Below, one piece after another: positions 1,716 through 11,829 of a stretch of 50,054 bases of DNA. Source of the DNA: a virus. Its lineage: Duplodnaviria > Caudoviricetes. The DNA is taken from positions 1-50,054 of the IMG/VR virus record IMGVR_UViG_3300020358_000009; one strand, 5' to 3'. Made by a program: the position numbers and the translations under genes. Position 1 is the first letter of the stretch; every line of letters starts with the position of its first letter. A model generated the notes under the pieces. It saw only the letters and a list, made by a program, of their open reading frames with translations, did not search any database and had not been told where the DNA came from.

Positions 1716-1780
1716 GATATACTCAAAACAACAGTGCATTATTAGACTTAGAAGTGAATTATATACTTATAAGAAAATAA
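1709..1780 (+). CDS. possible 23-aa micro-ORF (MVGYTQNNSALLDLEVNYILIRK)
   Basis: Fills the gap exactly, overlapping the upstream stop and the downstream ATG. Confidence 0.35.
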   Translation: MVGYTQNNSALLDLEVNYILIRK

Positions 1781-1941
1781 TGACAATGCAGGATACTAAA
1801 ATATATGTATTAAATTTCTTAAGTCTAGCTGTGTCATTTACCCATGTTGAAATGGCTTTAAAATTAATTCTATTATCAGCTTCTATTATTTATACAGCTC
1901 AAAGAATATGGATTAATTACAATGAGAAGAAAAATAAATAA
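1780..1941 (+). CDS. small membrane protein, putative holin (53 aa)
   Basis: MTMQDTKIYVLNFLSLAVSFTHVEMALKLILLSASIIYTAQRIWINYNEKKNK: hydrophobic core and basic C-tail, directly before the endolysin. Confidence 0.65.
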   Translation: MTMQDTKIYVLNFLSLAVSFTHVEMALKLILLSASIIYTAQRIWINYNEKKNK

Positions 1942-2332
1942 AATAATCATTCATTGTTCAGCAACTCCACCTAAAATGGATGTAGATGCAGAAACAGTAA
2001 ATGAATGGCATTTGAAAAATGGGTGGTCAGGTATTGGCTACCATTTTTTTATTAAAAGAGATGGTCAGATCGAACTAGGTCGACCAATAGAAAGCAAAGG
2101 AGCGCACACAAAAGGACAAAACAGCAATAGCATAGGAGTATGTTATGCAGGTGGGGTAGATTCAGATATGTGTCCAGAAGATAATAGAACAGAAAAACAA
2201 AAAGAAAGTTTTATTTTATTGTTGAAATTTTTAAAAAATATATTTCCTAAAGCAGTTATACATGGGCATAGAGATTTTTCACCAAAATCATGTCCAAGTT
2301 TTGACGCAACTAAAGAATACAACAAATTATGA
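1922..2332 (+). CDS. N-acetylmuramoyl-L-alanine amidase endolysin (T7 lysozyme/Amidase_2 type)
   Basis: IIIHCSAT, GWSGIGYH, GAH, SIGVCY.GG, GHRDF..KSCPSF Zn-amidase motifs. Confidence 0.95.
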   Translation: MRRKINKIIIHCSATPPKMDVDAETVNEWHLKNGWSGIGYHFFIKRDGQIELGRPIESKGAHTKGQNSNSIGVCYAGGVDSDMCPEDNRTEKQKESFILLLKFLKNIFPKAVIHGHRDFSPKSCPSFDATKEYNKL

Positions 2333-2724
2333 AAAAACTATGGCAATGGCTCAGCGGAAATGTAATAAAAGACGTTGGCGAAGTATTAGATAATCTTATA
2401 ACAACTGATGAGGAAAGGTTAGAAGCAAAACAAAAAATAACAAAAATTTTAGAACAAGCTGATAAAGAAGCTCAAGAACAAGTTACCGAACGTTGGAAAT
2501 TTGACATGGCATCAGATTCTTTCTTGTCTAAAAATATTCGTCCAATGGTACTTATATATTTAACAGTTATATTTACTGCATTATGTTTTACAGATGGAAA
2601 CATTGGTAGCTTTACAATATCAAAAGAATACATTCCCATTTTTCAAACATTACTTGTTACTGTATACGGTGCTTATTTTGTTGGAAGAAGCTGGGAGAAG
2701 GCTTCAAAGAAAATTAAAGAATAA
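2329..2724 (+). CDS. 3TM holin (GTA_holin_3TM-like)
   Basis: RW..DM.SDS.LSKNIRP plus hydrophobic segments and YFVGRSWEK; follows the endolysin. Confidence 0.8.
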   Translation: MKKLWQWLSGNVIKDVGEVLDNLITTDEERLEAKQKITKILEQADKEAQEQVTERWKFDMASDSFLSKNIRPMVLIYLTVIFTALCFTDGNIGSFTISKEYIPIFQTLLVTVYGAYFVGRSWEKASKKIKE

Positions 2725-6072: not shown

Positions 6073-6303
6073 ATGGATATAAGAAAAATATCAATTGGCG
6101 CTGATTATAAATCTAGCGCCATGCACTACATAGTTAATCAGGAGATTTTTAATGGAAGTTATTATATTCATTTAATAAAGCATATAAGCGAAAGCAACTC
6201 TATAAAAGTTTGGATTGAAAATAAAAAAGGAGAAATATTCCTTTGGAAAGAATTCAATTCTAATATGCCAATATCAATTGAATATAATATTAATTTTGAA
6301 TGA
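6073..6303 (+). CDS. conserved hypothetical phage protein
   Basis: IRKISIGADYK...WKEFN.NMPISIEYN pattern; sits before the GroES-like gene. Confidence 0.8.
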   Translation: MDIRKISIGADYKSSAMHYIVNQEIFNGSYYIHLIKHISESNSIKVWIENKKGEIFLWKEFNSNMPISIEYNINFE

Positions 6304-6863
6304 AATCACCTTTTTATTTCATTGTAAAACCAAGCAATGACAAAAGATATGATAATACTAAAAAGATTGGAAATGTTAACTTTATAACAAGTACATCTAA
6401 AGAAGATCATACCTCATCAAATAGATACGCAATAGTTATTGAAACACCCATAAACTATTCAGGCCCTGTAGAACCAGGAGACACACTTTTAGTTCATCAT
6501 AATGTTTTTAAATATTATAATGATATGAAAGGAAAAGAAAGAAGTGGAAAAAGTTTTTTTAAAGATAATTTGTTTTTTATTGATTACGATCAATTTTTTA
6601 TGTTTAAAAGTAAAGACACTTGGTCGTGCCACTCCAAATACTGTATGGTAAAACCTTTACCTAAAAAAAACAATTACCTTAAAACACATCAAGAAGAAGA
6701 ACCATTAATTGGATTAATAAAGTATTCTAATGAAAACTTAATTAGTAAAGGGATTAATAAAGGTGATAAAGTTTCATTTCAACCAGATAGTGAATATGAA
6801 TATAATGTGGATGGAGAAAAACTATATAGAATGCTTACCAATAACATAACCTTGGTTTTATGA
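6300..6863 (+). CDS. GroES-like co-chaperonin (apparently two tandem domains)
   Basis: FIVKP...VE.GDTLLVHHN and MVKP...G.IKY...GINKGDKV.F...EYEY.VDGEKLYRM resemble two GroES folds. Confidence 0.6.
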   Translation: MKSPFYFIVKPSNDKRYDNTKKIGNVNFITSTSKEDHTSSNRYAIVIETPINYSGPVEPGDTLLVHHNVFKYYNDMKGKERSGKSFFKDNLFFIDYDQFFMFKSKDTWSCHSKYCMVKPLPKKNNYLKTHQEEEPLIGLIKYSNENLISKGINKGDKVSFQPDSEYEYNVDGEKLYRMLTNNITLVL

Positions 6864-7147
6864 ATAATATTGAATTAAAATTAGAAATAATTAAAGCAGG
6901 GAAAAAAGCTGTAAAAGAGCTTATAAAAGTTGCAAATGAAGGTATATTAAAAAAAGACTTAGATGGGTTAGCTCCTGACATTGCAGCAGATAGATTAAAA
7001 AATGCAGCCGCTTCTAAAAAGCTAGCTATTTTTGATGCATTTGAAATATTATCTAAAATTGAAGAAGAAAATAGTATGATTAACACAGATAACGCAGAAA
7101 CAAAAGCAGCGTCATTTAAAGGCTTTGCAGAAGGTAGGTCAAAATAA
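6860..7147 (+). CDS. putative terminase small subunit
   Basis: Small helical protein coupled directly upstream of TerL. Confidence 0.55.
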   Translation: MNNIELKLEIIKAGKKAVKELIKVANEGILKKDLDGLAPDIAADRLKNAAASKKLAIFDAFEILSKIEEENSMINTDNAETKAASFKGFAEGRSK

Positions 7148-9372
7148 TGTATATACAAACTTTATATAAAATACTTGAAAATGTTATACCTGAAAAGGCA
7201 TTAAATTCTTACAATAAAAAGAAAGCATGGAAGTATGGATATAATAAAGAATATGACATTGTTATCATTTCAAAAGACGGCACAATTGGTGATGTATATG
7301 AAATACAAAAACTAAGAATAGCTTTACCAAAAGTAAAGGACGTTCATAGTTTTAAAAATAATTATTGGGATAAGTTAGAATATCCTAAAGAATTAAGTAA
7401 AATAAAAAATGTGTTTGATTGGGATAAATATCCTGATTCTTTTAAAGAAAAATGGTATGACTATATTGACAAAGAATTTGAAAGACGTGAAGAAGGTTTT
7501 TGGTTTAATAACAAAGGTGTTTCTACTTATATTACTGGTTCTCACTACATGTACTTGTGCTGGACCAAGATTGATGTTGGGCAGCCAAACTTTAGGGAAT
7601 CAAATAGATTATTCTACATATTCTGGGAAGCATGTAAAGCAGACATTCGTTCATACGGAATGTGCTATCTTAAAAACAGGCGTTCAGGCTTTTCGTTCAT
7701 GTCCTCATCAGAGCTGGTGCATGCAGCAACCACCTCACGTGACTCACGTTTTGGCATATTGTCAAAAACAGGGTCGGATGCTAAGAAGATGTTCACTGAT
7801 AAAGTCGTTCCCATATCACTTAACTATCCCTTCTTCTTCAAGCCCATCCAAGACGGTATGGACAGGCCGAAGACCGAGCTTGCCTATAGAGTACCTGCCT
7901 CCAAACTTACCAGAAAAAAACTTGATGCAAATCAGGCCGTTGAGGAACTCGAAGGTCTTGATACAACCATCGATTGGAAAAACACAGGGGACAACTCCTA
8001 CGATGGGGAAAAATTAAAAATACTTGCTCATGATGAAAGCGGCAAGTGGGAAAGACCTGACAACATACTAAATAATTGGAGAGTTACAAAAACTTGCTTA
8101 AGATTAGGTTCTAGAATTATTGGAAAATGTATGATGGGAAGTACATCTAATTCAATAGAAAAAGGTGGTGGTAACTTTAAAAAGTTATATGCAGATTCTA
8201 ATGTAGTAAAACGAAACAAGAATGGTCAAACTAAAAGCGGATTATATTCACTTTTCATCCCTATGGAATGGAATTATGAAGGGTTTATAGATGTTTATGG
8301 ATACCCTGTATTTGATGAGCCAAAAGAAGATTTAGAAGGGCCATTTGGAGATGTTATAGATGAAGGTGTTATTAATCATTGGAATAATGAAGTAGAAGGT
8401 TTAAAGTCTGATCCTGATGGATTAAACGAATATTATAGACAATTCCCTAGAACAGAGTCTCATGCATTTAGAGATGAAAGCAAACAATCATTATTTAATT
8501 TACAGAAAATTTATCAACAGATAGATTATAACGATTCTTTAATAAAAGATAGGTTTGTAACACGAGGTTCTTTTAGTTGGAAAAATGGCGTTCAAGATAC
8601 AGAAGTTATTTTTTCACCAAATGATAGAGGAAGATTCTATGTTTCTTGGACTCCTAACAAACAATTACAAAACAAATACTATTATAAAAACGGAGTTAAG
8701 TATCCAAGCAATGACCACATGGGAGCGTTTGGTTGTGATAGCTACGATATATCAGGAACAGTAGGTGGTGGAGGTTCTAACGGAGCTTTGCATGGAATGA
8801 CTAAGTTTCATATGGATGAAGGCCCAACTAGTGAGTTTTTTTTAGAATACATTGCTAGACCTCAAACTGCAGAAATATTTTTTGAAGATGTACTTATGGC
8901 TTGTGTGTTTTATGGAATGCCAATTTTAATAGAAAACAATAAACCTCGTTTATTGTATCATTTTAAAAATAGAGGATATAGAGGTTATAGTATGAATAGA
9001 CCTGATAAAATTTACACTAAATTATCAAAAACAGAAAAAGAATTAGGAGGAATACCTAACAGTTCAGAAGATATAAAACAAGCACACGCAGCAGCTATAG
9101 AGTCGTATATAGAAAAGCACGTAGGGTTTGATATGTCAGGTACATTTAGAGAGTTAGATGTAATAGGTTCTATGTATTTTATTAGAACATTAGAAGACTG
9201 GGCAAGGTTTAATATTAACAACAGAACTAAGTTTGATGCGTCAATAAGTTCAGGTTTAGCTATAATGGCTACACAAAAAAACCTTTATCAACCCATTAAA
9301 AAGAAATCAAAAATAAAACTTAACTTTGCAAGATACGACAATAAGGGAAGTTATAGCCAAATTATACAATAA
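7147..9372 (+). CDS. terL: terminase large subunit
   Basis: Walker A-like LKNRRSGFS, Walker B LAHDESGK, MGST coupling motif, nuclease FGCDSYD. Confidence 0.93.
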   Translation: MYIQTLYKILENVIPEKALNSYNKKKAWKYGYNKEYDIVIISKDGTIGDVYEIQKLRIALPKVKDVHSFKNNYWDKLEYPKELSKIKNVFDWDKYPDSFKEKWYDYIDKEFERREEGFWFNNKGVSTYITGSHYMYLCWTKIDVGQPNFRESNRLFYIFWEACKADIRSYGMCYLKNRRSGFSFMSSSELVHAATTSRDSRFGILSKTGSDAKKMFTDKVVPISLNYPFFFKPIQDGMDRPKTELAYRVPASKLTRKKLDANQAVEELEGLDTTIDWKNTGDNSYDGEKLKILAHDESGKWERPDNILNNWRVTKTCLRLGSRIIGKCMMGSTSNSIEKGGGNFKKLYADSNVVKRNKNGQTKSGLYSLFIPMEWNYEGFIDVYGYPVFDEPKEDLEGPFGDVIDEGVINHWNNEVEGLKSDPDGLNEYYRQFPRTESHAFRDESKQSLFNLQKIYQQIDYNDSLIKDRFVTRGSFSWKNGVQDTEVIFSPNDRGRFYVSWTPNKQLQNKYYYKNGVKYPSNDHMGAFGCDSYDISGTVGGGGSNGALHGMTKFHMDEGPTSEFFLEYIARPQTAEIFFEDVLMACVFYGMPILIENNKPRLLYHFKNRGYRGYSMNRPDKIYTKLSKTEKELGGIPNSSEDIKQAHAAAIESYIEKHVGFDMSGTFRELDVIGSMYFIRTLEDWARFNINNRTKFDASISSGLAIMATQKNLYQPIKKKSKIKLNFARYDNKGSYSQIIQ
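7409..8017 (+). CDS. candidate overprinted +1-frame ORF with lipoprotein-like signal (alternative start 7457)
   Basis: 202 stop-free codons, local GC rise, basic/hydrophobic/LTTC N-terminus. Confidence 0.45.
   Translation: MCLIGINILILLKKNGMTILTKNLKDVKKVFGLITKVFLLILLVLTTCTCAGPRLMLGSQTLGNQIDYSTYSGKHVKQTFVHTECAILKTGVQAFRSCPHQSWCMQQPPHVTHVLAYCQKQGRMLRRCSLIKSFPYHLTIPSSSSPSKTVWTGRRPSLPIEYLPPNLPEKNLMQIRPLRNSKVLIQPSIGKTQGTTPTMGKN
9321..9328 (+). promoter_or_regulatory. -7 box TAACTTTG for the portal gene, inside the terL 3' end
   Basis: TAnnTTTG about 45 nt upstream of the portal ATG. Confidence 0.45.
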
Positions 9373-11829
9373 ATGGAGGATGTAAAAATCACGTTAAATC
9401 CCACAGGTTTTCCTAGTCAATTTGTTTCAGACAAAGAAAAGGATTCCTTTGAGTTTGGATTACAAATAGGACAAGCTATTCAATATGAATGGTTCAGAAA
9501 AGATGGTGGACAAAGTAGATTCTACAATCAATGGGCAGATTTCCATAGATTGAGACTATATGCTCGTGGAGAGCAGTCAATACAAAAATATAAAAATGAA
9601 TTAGCAATAGACGGAGATTTAAGTTATTTAAACTTAGACTGGACTCCTGTTCCTATTATTCCAAAATTTGTAGACATTGTTGTAAATGGAATGGCAGATA
9701 GAGTATTCAAGATAAATGCCTATGCTCAAGACGGAATGTCTTTAGATAAAAGAAGTGAATACCAAGTAAATTTAGAAAAAGACATGCTAGCAAAACCTGT
9801 TATGAAGCAGGTACAACAGCAATTAGGAATAAATACATTTGCTACGTCAGAAGAAGATGTTCCTAATACATCAGAAGAATTAGCATTACATATGCAGTTG
9901 AAGTATAAGCCTTCAATTGAAATAGCAGAAGAAGAAGCAATAAATACATTACTTTCTGAAAATAGATATTACGAAATACAAAAACAGTTGTATTACGATC
10001 AAACTGTTTTGGGTGTTTCAATGTGTAAAAATACATTTCAACCTGGAGCTGGAATAAGAGTAGAGTATGTAGACCCTGCTAATGTTGTTTATAGTTATAC
10101 GGAAGATCCTCATTTTGAAGATTGTTTTTATTGGGGTGAAATTAAAACATTACCAATAACCGAATTAAAAAAGATAGATACAAGTTTGACAAGACAAGAT
10201 ATGGATGAAATATCTAAGTATAGTCAAAGCTGGTATGATTACAATAACACAGCTCAGTATTACAATAATAGTTTATTTAGTAAGGATAGTGCTACTGTTT
10301 TGTTTTTTAATTATAAAACAACACATACGTTTACTTATAAGAAAAAAATAAATTCAGCTGGAGCAGAAAAAGTAATAGAAAAAGAAGACACATTTGATCC
10401 CACTCAGGAAATGCAAGAAGAAGGAAACTTTAAAAAAGTTTCTAAGACCATAGATGTTTGGTATGAGGGTGTAATGGTAATGGGAACAAACATTTTACTT
10501 AAATGGAGAATGGCTGAAAACATGGCTAGACCACAATCTGCATCTCAAGAAGTTTATCCTGAATATATAGCTTGCGCACCTAGGATGTATAAAGGCGTTT
10601 TTGAATCATTAACAAGACGTATGATTACGTTTGCTGATTTAATTCAAATAACACATTTAAAATTACAACAAGTAATATCTAGAGTTGTACCTGATGGTGT
10701 TTTTATAGATGCAGATGGATTAAATGAAGTTGACTTAGGAACAGGTCAAGCATATAATCCAGAGGATGCATTACGAATGTTTTTTCAAACAGGTTCTGTT
10801 ATTGGTAGAAGCTATACTCAAGATGGAGATTACAATCAAGCAAAAGTACCTATTCAACAATTAAATAGTAATTCAGGACAGGGTAAAATACAAAGTTTAG
10901 TAGGTTCATATAATCATTATATGCAAATGCTAAGAGATGTAACTGGCCTAAATGAAGCAAGAGACGGCTCTACACCTGATAGTTATTCATTGGTAGGGTT
11001 ACAAAAACTTGCAGCATTAAGTAGTAACACTGCAACAAGACATATTTTAGATGCAGGTATTCAAATGAGTCAAAGACTTTGTACGGCATTATCTAGTAGA
11101 ATTGCTGATGTATTAGAGTATTCTGAATTTAAAGAAGAGTTTGTTAATCAGATTGGAAAATTTAATGTTGGGTTGCTTGAAGAAATAAGTAAGTTATACT
11201 TAAGTGACTTTGGAATATTTATAGAAATTGAGCCTGATGAAGAAGAAAGAAAAATGCTTGAACAAAATATTCAAATGGCATTACAAAGAGATTCTATAAA
11301 TCTAGAAGATGCTATTGATATTCGTGAAATAAGAAACTTAAAGTTAGCTAATCAAATACTAAAATTAAAAAGAATAGCTAAACAAGATAGAGTTCAAAAA
11401 GAAAAAGCCTCTGCAGCTCAACAGCAAGCTCAAATAAATCAGCAGTCACAGCAAATGGCAGCACAAGCAAAAATGCAACAATTTCAAATGGAAAATCAAG
11501 CAGCTATGCAGTTAGAAGAGGCAAAAACTCAATTTGCTGTTAAGAAGATGCAAGGTGAGGCTACAATAAAAGCTGAGCTTATGAATCTTGAATTCTCACT
11601 ACAGATGAAATTAAAAGGTGTGGATGTCGATATGAAAAAAATGGAGCAAGAGGGTTTGAAAAAAAGAGAAGATGAAAGAGAAACCGCCAAGTCTGCTAGG
11701 ATATCTCAAGCAAATACAGAGCAATCAAAACTTATAGAACAAAGAAAAAATAATCTACCATCAGTTAGTTTTGAATCTAATGAAGATAGTTTAGATGGAT
11801 TTGACTTAGCTGAATTTGAACCAAGATAA
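9373..11829 (+). CDS. portal protein
   Basis: Follows TerL; 818 aa; LNLDWTPVPIIPKFVDIVVNG motif and Gln-rich C-terminal coil typical of podovirus portals. Confidence 0.88.
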   Translation: MEDVKITLNPTGFPSQFVSDKEKDSFEFGLQIGQAIQYEWFRKDGGQSRFYNQWADFHRLRLYARGEQSIQKYKNELAIDGDLSYLNLDWTPVPIIPKFVDIVVNGMADRVFKINAYAQDGMSLDKRSEYQVNLEKDMLAKPVMKQVQQQLGINTFATSEEDVPNTSEELALHMQLKYKPSIEIAEEEAINTLLSENRYYEIQKQLYYDQTVLGVSMCKNTFQPGAGIRVEYVDPANVVYSYTEDPHFEDCFYWGEIKTLPITELKKIDTSLTRQDMDEISKYSQSWYDYNNTAQYYNNSLFSKDSATVLFFNYKTTHTFTYKKKINSAGAEKVIEKEDTFDPTQEMQEEGNFKKVSKTIDVWYEGVMVMGTNILLKWRMAENMARPQSASQEVYPEYIACAPRMYKGVFESLTRRMITFADLIQITHLKLQQVISRVVPDGVFIDADGLNEVDLGTGQAYNPEDALRMFFQTGSVIGRSYTQDGDYNQAKVPIQQLNSNSGQGKIQSLVGSYNHYMQMLRDVTGLNEARDGSTPDSYSLVGLQKLAALSSNTATRHILDAGIQMSQRLCTALSSRIADVLEYSEFKEEFVNQIGKFNVGLLEEISKLYLSDFGIFIEIEPDEEERKMLEQNIQMALQRDSINLEDAIDIREIRNLKLANQILKLKRIAKQDRVQKEKASAAQQQAQINQQSQQMAAQAKMQQFQMENQAAMQLEEAKTQFAVKKMQGEATIKAELMNLEFSLQMKLKGVDVDMKKMEQEGLKKREDERETAKSARISQANTEQSKLIEQRKNNLPSVSFESNEDSLDGFDLAEFEPR

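Follow-up and report, generated by a model that had tools for sequence, protein, structure and literature searches.

Can the gene for a phage packaging motor also carry, in a second reading frame, a gene for a protein of the cell envelope? The question is raised by IMGVR_UViG_3300020358_000009, an IMG/VR record of an uncultured phage (50,054 bases, completeness estimate 83%; this whole stretch of DNA is the window below), in which the +1 frame of the terminase large-subunit gene, terL, stays open over a long internal region. A preliminary description of the locus had read this region as a nested lipoprotein gene that spans Walker A and ends just before Walker B, motif names that we presume to apply here. 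Our comparisons indicate that the nested frame is very probably a real, translated gene and, with only slightly less assurance, that its product is exported or targeted to a membrane. The two overlapping genes are as follows.

7147..9372, + strand: terL (terminase large subunit), 741 amino acids (aa), the host gene (phrog_6681, E=2e-170)
7457..8017, + strand: nested +1-frame gene, likely a 186-aa precursor, read from ATG 7457 (terL codon 104), with TTG 7466 as an alternative start

The open reading frame (ORF) originally described, 202 aa at 7409-8017 in the +1 frame of terL, is present and is flanked by +1 stops at 7403 and 8015; the frame is open from 7406, giving a stop-free run of 203 codons. 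The GC counts reported for four 60-base blocks (32, 29, 13 and 15) were all exact, and GC content at third codon positions (GC3) is 0.44 in codons 105-290 vs 0.19 elsewhere in terL. A +1 run of 203 codons was reached in 0/20,000 recodings with the genome's codon usage and in 0/20,000 synonymous permutations within terL; when permutation was confined to the GC-rich region, such a run occurred at a frequency of 0.00055. The longest +1 runs in the window's other 23 long ORFs span 26-81 codons.

To follow the frame across relatives, we aligned the window with 80 IMG/VR sequences of 69-98% identity (the best 80 of 600). As the preliminary description would predict, 57 of these 81 TerL sequences lack any +1 stop in codons 108-250, where 0.02 such sequences were expected, this interval having been picked after inspection of the data. 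Each sequence's own codon usage predicts about six +1 stops there; the remaining 24 sequences contain 2-8, and none contains exactly one. None of the other non-overlapping 143-codon windows of terL was stop-free in any of the 81. In the open sequences, NTA codons before a purine are absent (0/510, by definition), and before a pyrimidine, where no stop arises, they are still used at 0.55; the avoidance is therefore directed at the +1 stop, not at the codon itself. No fewer than 8 stops interrupt the +2 frame in each of the 62 open representatives. Enlarging the set to 236 sequences (the first scan plus two scans seeded with closed sequences, some contigs being counted twice) gave 82 open, 3 shortened, 147 closed and 4 truncated frames.

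A tree of 186 rows, built from sites outside the overlap, split the sequences in two: clade A groups 63 closed sequences with the window and two relatives close to it, and clade B comprises 55 closed and 61 open or short ones. The frame is closed in 63 of the 66 clade-A representatives, as it is in elemoF, phi19:3, phi38:1, Gundel_1 and the Manatee Spring phage. Its phylogenetic range is narrower than that of the host terL frame, which belongs to an abundant family (an estimated ~12,000 stored IMG/VR stretches match terL patterns). A protein search with the nested product returned 47 matches, and the 18 inspected were full nested-type ORFs or TerL fusions whose junctions differ. We rejected a programmed frameshift, since the differing junctions were read as assembly indels and many open relatives carry a +1 stop directly before their ATG. 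The nested protein has no family match in PHROGs or Pfam, and a search of the ESM Atlas gave no usable match, a result that speaks for neither novelty nor absence. The RNA runs consisted of contigs only, with small shares (0.05-0.18), and have no bearing on expression or start sites.

Where does the gene begin? The ATG at 7409 first put forward as the start is not conserved, even in a 98%-identical relative (L001), whereas the ATG at 7457, listed as its alternative, is the likely start. A +1 stop at codon 107 is present in 24 of the 57 open relatives; together with the lack of conservation at 7409, this places the start of the conserved gene at terL codon 104-111. The ATG at codon 104 is common to the window and its three closest relatives (L001, L002 and L004), and every open sequence has a start codon within codons 97-111 (ATG in 58/64, TTG or GTG in 6/64); none is found there in 37/55 closed sequences of clade B. 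The A-rich context noted earlier is better at 7409 than at 7457. A small predicted hairpin lies just upstream of ATG 7457, at window positions 7416-7437, and recurs in several relatives; it is partly forced by TerL and does not differ between open and closed sequences. An upstream RNA-folding signal in codons 60-99 (z -2.05, up to 12 open sequences) disappeared once 45 open and 45 clade-B closed sequences were compared (-0.63 in both), and no folding signal inside the overlap was found that separates open from closed sequences. We also searched for an internal promoter of the form TAnnTTTG; none lies upstream in the window's lineage, and the motif is not specific to open genomes.

The anatomy of the predicted product was resolved by comparing open with closed sequences, the codon numbers being those of terL.

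7520..7555, + strand: selected hydrophobic leader core, ending T-C-T (codons 125-136)
7556..7558, + strand: Cys137, the likely lipidated Cys, from the open-vs-closed comparison
7559..8014, + strand: hydrophilic tail rich in S, T, Q, P and R, predicted to be disordered, with no transmembrane segment

In a comparison of 49 open with 22 closed representatives (counts that are not phylogenetically independent), the open set is nearly uniform at L130 (49/49 open vs 10/22 closed), L132 (48/49 vs 5/22), T/S136 (46/49 vs 6/22) and Cys137 (46/49 vs 5/22; 59/64 vs 30/119 in a larger set). Cys occurs at position 137 in 94% of the open set, compared with 55% and 12% at comparable tail Leu sites (codons 205 and 155). 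The preliminary description had counted further Cys residues as part of the signal; most of these are forced by TerL Met-Tyr/Cys/Phe codons, as is the invariant Cys135 (7550) by TerL Met135, and Cys137 (7556) alone is clearly selected. The same pattern appears in synonymous choices. A T at a four-fold degenerate terL site gives a hydrophobic residue in the +1 frame, and the frequency of such T (T3) is 0.87 in codons 126-137 of open sequences and down to 0.20-0.25 in codons 138-250, against a baseline of 0.44 outside this region, whereas in closed sequences it is ~0.5 throughout (0.47 in the leader). The GC rise therefore reflects selection for a hydrophilic tail behind a hydrophobic leader.

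The predicted constraint on synonymous sites holds for one part of the gene only. Disjoint close pairs (21 open, 38 closed) show, relative to the 3' half of terL, reduced synonymous divergence in the leader (0.64 open vs 1.39 closed) but not in the tail (1.15-1.34 open vs 1.18-1.23 closed); by this measure the tail is under no identity-level constraint, its exact sequence being free. From Cys137 the tail extends 83-185 aa in relatives, with frames ending anywhere from codon 254 to 320, and its net charge ranges from -1 to +22 across the open set. The maximal 19-residue hydropathy over 64 mature tails has a median of 0.52 and a highest value of 1.54. An AlphaFold model of the mature part (60 rows) scored a predicted local distance difference test (pLDDT) of 40.5 and a predicted template modelling score (pTM) of 0.10, values that fit a disordered tail without proving it. 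Some relatives (L007, L014/L224, L185 and L225) are variants, with frames ending early at codon 220-225 and an intact leader, or with Phe for Cys137; Phe replaces Cys137 in two open frames, and L185 sits beside or within a large closed clade. Judged from these alignments, selection has kept the openness of the +1 frame, a start codon, the hydrophobic leader, Cys137 and a hydrophilic tail no shorter than about 85-115 aa.

How far does this anatomy support the lipoprotein-like signal originally proposed? An export leader and a selected Cys are strongly supported by the comparison; lipidation itself is likely, yet not separable from a signal peptidase I leader or an uncleaved anchor. A basic N-region and a hydrophobic core precede the conserved Cys under our own hydropathy rule. 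Compared with the canonical lipobox [LVI][ASTVI][GAS]C, the open sequences mostly read ITCT-C or LIT-C, which places Thr at -1, outside the [GAS] consensus given for that position in the part of PMC6139136 cited here. This Thr is the smaller of the two residues allowed by TerL Tyr136, and where TerL has Phe the residue is Ser in 4/4. Bacteroidetes surface lipoproteins carry an acidic export signal, according to the part of PMC5080379 cited here, and D or E was found at +2 to +6 in 0/64 sequences.

The best-surviving alternative, though an unlikely one, is that the product is exported without being lipidated: signal peptidase I would cleave it near C-T-C/S-G, or it would stay anchored in the inner membrane uncleaved, and its target would be something else in the periplasm or the export machinery. 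The non-canonical Thr fits this alternative and weighs against lipidation, as does the lack of Cys137 in 5/64 open sequences (Ser in 2, Tyr or Phe in 3); the selected residues 136-137 are also merely small, the leader is long (~29-33 aa), and codon 123 gives Lys or Arg in 32/49. However, Cys is kept in 59/64 sequences though a synonymous Leu codon could give Ser, a frequency far above that of comparable tail sites, and a second site for lipidation, Cys135, is present throughout. On balance we regard lipidation as probable.

The history of the frame was then read from the tree and from the genes around terL.

6300..6863, + strand: GroES-like gene, upstream neighbour, clade-A type
6860..7147, + strand: likely terS, a label inferred from position, clade-A type
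9373..11829, + strand: portal gene (phrog_6547), downstream of terL, clade-A type
7147..8430, + strand: likely imported segment, TerL residues 1 to ~420-437, from diagnostic sites and an approximately unbiased (AU) test

Within clade B the frame is ancestral and has been lost about eight times, by a FastTree reconstruction with some weak nodes; an earlier placement of its origin before all 81 sequences was dropped once clade A and outgroups had joined the tree. The window's terS, GroES, portal and capsid genes belong to clade A, with best identities in clades A and B of 81 vs 44% for the GroES-like protein, 74 vs 61-66% for terS and 86 vs 54% for the portal. TerL itself is of clade-B type at 17/20 diagnostic sites up to residue 418 and of clade-A type at 9/14 from residue 438, which puts the breakpoint between ~8400 and ~8460. 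The AU test, run on 26 chosen sequences, rejected a grouping of the N-terminal half with the window's genomic sisters (p=3e-6), whereas the C-terminal half groups with them (support 98). The window's terL is thus likely a clade-B N-terminal half joined to a clade-A C-terminal half in a clade-A genome, and the nested gene most likely entered this lineage along with the ATPase half. Since that import the frame has stayed open across ~0.33 synonymous differences per site. The preliminary description had named a segment recombined from a higher-GC relative as the scenario that would undo its reading. The segment is indeed recombinant, but recombination does not explain the GC island, because the imported half reaches well past the GC-rich stretch and is AT-rich outside codons ~105-295; GC3 is back to 0.20-0.27 in lineages without the frame (7 measured, loci bearing the u-spanin genes described below). 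Domain swaps in this phage group distort single-gene terL trees, in which the window's lineage is misplaced.

What might such a protein do? The window carries a lysis cassette upstream of terL.

1780..1941, + strand: holin-like ORF, 53 aa, a label inferred from hydrophobic stretches and position
1922..2332, + strand: amidase endolysin (PHROG amidase match; Amidase_2)
2329..2724, + strand: holin (PHROG match)

No spanin gene was found in the lysis cassettes of the window (1780..2724) and of a 94% complete genome, G001. When all frames of these two genomes were scanned with our own hydropathy rule, no lipoprotein candidate other than the nested ORF emerged. It lacks the C-terminal transmembrane helix of u-spanins in all 64 mature tails, the u-spanin-type family found in relatives scoring 1.8-2.8 over 17 residues. 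Stand-alone genes of u-spanin architecture, with a lipobox and a C-terminal helix, lie next to the endolysin in some closed relatives (L061 and L129). Those at L061:395-829, L276:611-1033 and L129:6603-7019 are unannotated and directly follow the endolysin. Neither PHROGs nor Pfam has a match for the L061 family, a mobile cassette that unrelated phages carry too. A scan for it found 27 loci, in 11 of which the flank includes terL; every one of these 11 is closed and belongs to clade B, and together they form two lineages nested within open clades. The family occurs in 0/50 open contigs, which are mostly fragments (2 are at least 90% complete), and across the clade-B loci examined u-spanin architecture and the nested frame were never found together. 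Further u-spanin scans added 107 loci, 8 of them with terL, all closed and from the same two lineages, and so provide no new independent test. Loss of the frame in these two lineages is a weak hint at a role in lysis.

We tentatively propose, while giving it somewhat less than an even chance, that the nested product is a dispensable lysis helper for breaking the outer membrane. Translation would begin at ATG 7457 on the late packaging transcript, and the product would be exported by Sec and then lipidated at Cys137 or Cys135; it would presumably face the periplasm, as the acidic surface-export signal is missing. With the wall gone through the action of holin and endolysin, the flexible chain, anchored and mostly basic, might, more speculatively, bridge or weaken both membranes, needing no fold or partner and serving as a weak stand-in for a u-spanin. 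A bolder version, which we consider doubtful, is that the packaging motor gene has given rise to a new type of lysis protein, a lipid-anchored disordered chain able to break or fuse the outer membrane without a fold, a partner or a second anchor, which was spread by ATPase-domain swaps and dropped on gain of a u-spanin.

Several observations weigh against this proposal. The start context of ATG 7457 is moderate (88th percentile of internal ATGs), and positive tail charge, variable as it is, is not enriched over closed sequences. The link to u-spanins consists of two lineages, one of which suggested the idea, and the chance for the other ranges from 0.08 (loss branch) to 0.41 (any closed branch). 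The loss in the first lineage may predate its u-spanin, because L044, a closed sequence whose short contig does not reach the cassette, is the sister of that lineage in the N-half tree. Only 1/50 closed clade-B contigs has a u-spanin (49/50 are without), and four closed genomes, 90-100% complete, have no credible lipoprotein, so such phages manage without one. An open locus, L241, also has a stand-alone lipoprotein. Finally, floppy-tailed stand-alone lipoproteins without a C-terminal helix do sit between endolysin and holin in related phages (L121 and L173), a point in favour of the proposal, but their family is often away from terL and not always beside an endolysin; a scan for it found terL in 3/23 new loci, all clade A (closed anyway), and was uninformative. 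Members of this family (L121:330-743, L173:507-884 and L252-L274) have a Tyr-rich middle and a Pro/Ser/Asn tail, often lie between endolysin and holin, and match no known family.

The preliminary description had also offered a superinfection-exclusion role, for which we found no positive evidence. Cor and T5 Llp represent families of lipoproteins that exclude superinfecting phages or mask receptors, and a product acting in their manner would share the lipoprotein anatomy of the nested protein and its patchy and mobile distribution, of the kind usual in accessory genes. Receptor blockers, however, need a specific surface, and the tail has neither identity-level constraint nor a confident fold; the gene also sits within a late gene, no shared internal promoter was found, and there is no PHROG or Pfam match, including to families of the Cor or Llp type. 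We consider this role rather improbable. Less probable still is selection on the act of translating the +1 frame, through which ribosomes might adjust how much TerL is made or draw the packaging transcript to the membrane: the unconstrained tail sequence, its wandering end and the shortened frames of two lineages are as this would predict, but consistent selection for a hydrophilic tail and Cys137 implies an exported product whose chemistry matters.

The suggestion that the product is o-spanin-like did not hold up, as the host gene is terL and not an i-spanin gene, and neither the window nor G001 has a candidate for a type II membrane partner. That it forms the o-spanin half of a two-component spanin with an i-spanin elsewhere is accordingly very unlikely. 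According to the part of PMC6139136 cited here, lambda Rz1 is likewise an unstructured, Pro-rich lipoprotein in a +1 frame, which speaks for this reading; the same source gives the widest known separation of two spanin genes as ~1 kb, which speaks against it. A possible partner, the F46 family (an N-terminal helix and a coil-like tail), occurs in 8/20 open contigs but is missing from G001, from G003 (82% complete) and from the window's called genes, is also present in closed genomes, and would face a tail with no conserved binding segment. The weakest alternative, that there is no second gene and the open frame arose by chance, through RNA structure or as a side effect of recombination with a GC-rich segment, can appeal to the recombinant origin of the segment and to the lower stop frequency at higher GC3, but is made extremely unlikely by avoidance specific to +1 stops, an imported half that is AT-rich outside the overlap, the fall of GC3 in lineages without the frame and the lack of a folding signal that splits open from closed sequences.

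F46 also belongs to a module that recurs with F81 and F136 near endolysin genes (L092:13381-16839 in G002, and also G034, G108 and G113). F81 is predicted to be secreted and weakly thioredoxin-like; F136 is a secreted protein of 350-430 aa with an outer-membrane-barrel-like end and no Pfam match. F136 and F46 together were rejected as a replacement for the nested gene, F136 being found in 3/20 open contigs alongside the F46 count given above. The gp100 protein of phi19:3 (L083:10694-11062), encoded near the endolysin, bears a signal and is coil-like; its start lies further upstream than the annotation has it, and it is possibly an unannotated spanin part. Among flavobacterial phage isolates, the part of PMC8776804 cited here lists u-spanins for some genera and none for Calle and Gundel.

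How does the nested gene compare with known systems? Embedded lipoprotein genes are already known. In the portions of the published accounts cited here, lambda Rz1 in Rz and T7 18.7 in 18.5 are likewise out-of-frame genes of lipoprotein type (+1 for Rz1) with an unstructured product, and are easily missed by gene callers. Unlike these, the terL-nested gene has a terminase as host and not an i-spanin, has no partner that we found and is dispensable; its tail is 2-4 times longer than the 40 aa given for Rz1 in those portions and has no conserved binding segment. T7 genes 19.2 and 19.3 (NC_001604) are also nested in a terminase large-subunit gene, in the +1 frame by record coordinates; they are short (85 and 57 codons), annotated as hypothetical and belong to an unrelated terminase lineage. 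U-spanins of the T1 gp11 type are similarly single lipoproteins without a partner in the part of PMC6139136 cited here, but the nested product differs from them in having no C-terminal transmembrane helix, no predicted beta-rich domain and no place beside the endolysin. The phiKT gp28 disruptin offers a possible functional analogy, described in the part of bioRxiv 10.1101/515445 cited here as cationic, spanin-independent outer-membrane disruption; gp28 is a 56-aa predicted amphipathic helix for which that part mentions no lipoprotein signal, whereas the charge of the nested product is variable and not clearly selected.

Overprinted or small lysis proteins have other precedents. PhiX174 E, a lysis gene with a membrane-targeted product, is overprinted on the morphogenesis gene D, and colicin lysis lipoproteins are small lipoproteins that weaken the outer membrane. 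The window's phage differs in already having holin and endolysin genes, and its nested tail is much longer and selected for length. We found no report of a terL-nested gene of this kind in the full-text literature searched, which was mostly without subscription journals and without supplements. As far as these comparisons allow, the terL-nested gene is a de novo overprinted envelope-protein gene, real and under selection. It is an unusually well-resolved case of natural gene birth by overprinting in a double-stranded DNA phage, with one origin in a highly conserved motor domain, a codon-level signature of leader and tail, ~8 losses and one import by intragenic recombination. A further warning it gives is that envelope genes nested in core genes are hidden by gene callers. 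About 13% of genomes are spanin-less in the part of PMC6139136 cited here, and a lysis role, if true, would bear on how such phages cross the outer membrane, an unfolded lipoprotein being sufficient.

In the window, the GroES-like gene, amidase and holin lie upstream of terL, and the portal and structural genes downstream. Because its closest annotated TerL relatives are from the Manatee Spring phage (68%), Flavobacterium elemo phages (45%) and Cellulophaga and Tenacibaculum phages (31-38%), a flavobacterium is the presumed host of the window's phage. Positions 4-1454, which precede the lysis cassette, hold a series of small, strongly basic Lys/Arg-rich ORFs that are kept among clade-A relatives. 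Other same-strand nested stop-free runs, of 100-133 codons, occur in replication-side genes at G003:36751-38469 and G101:36591-39017.

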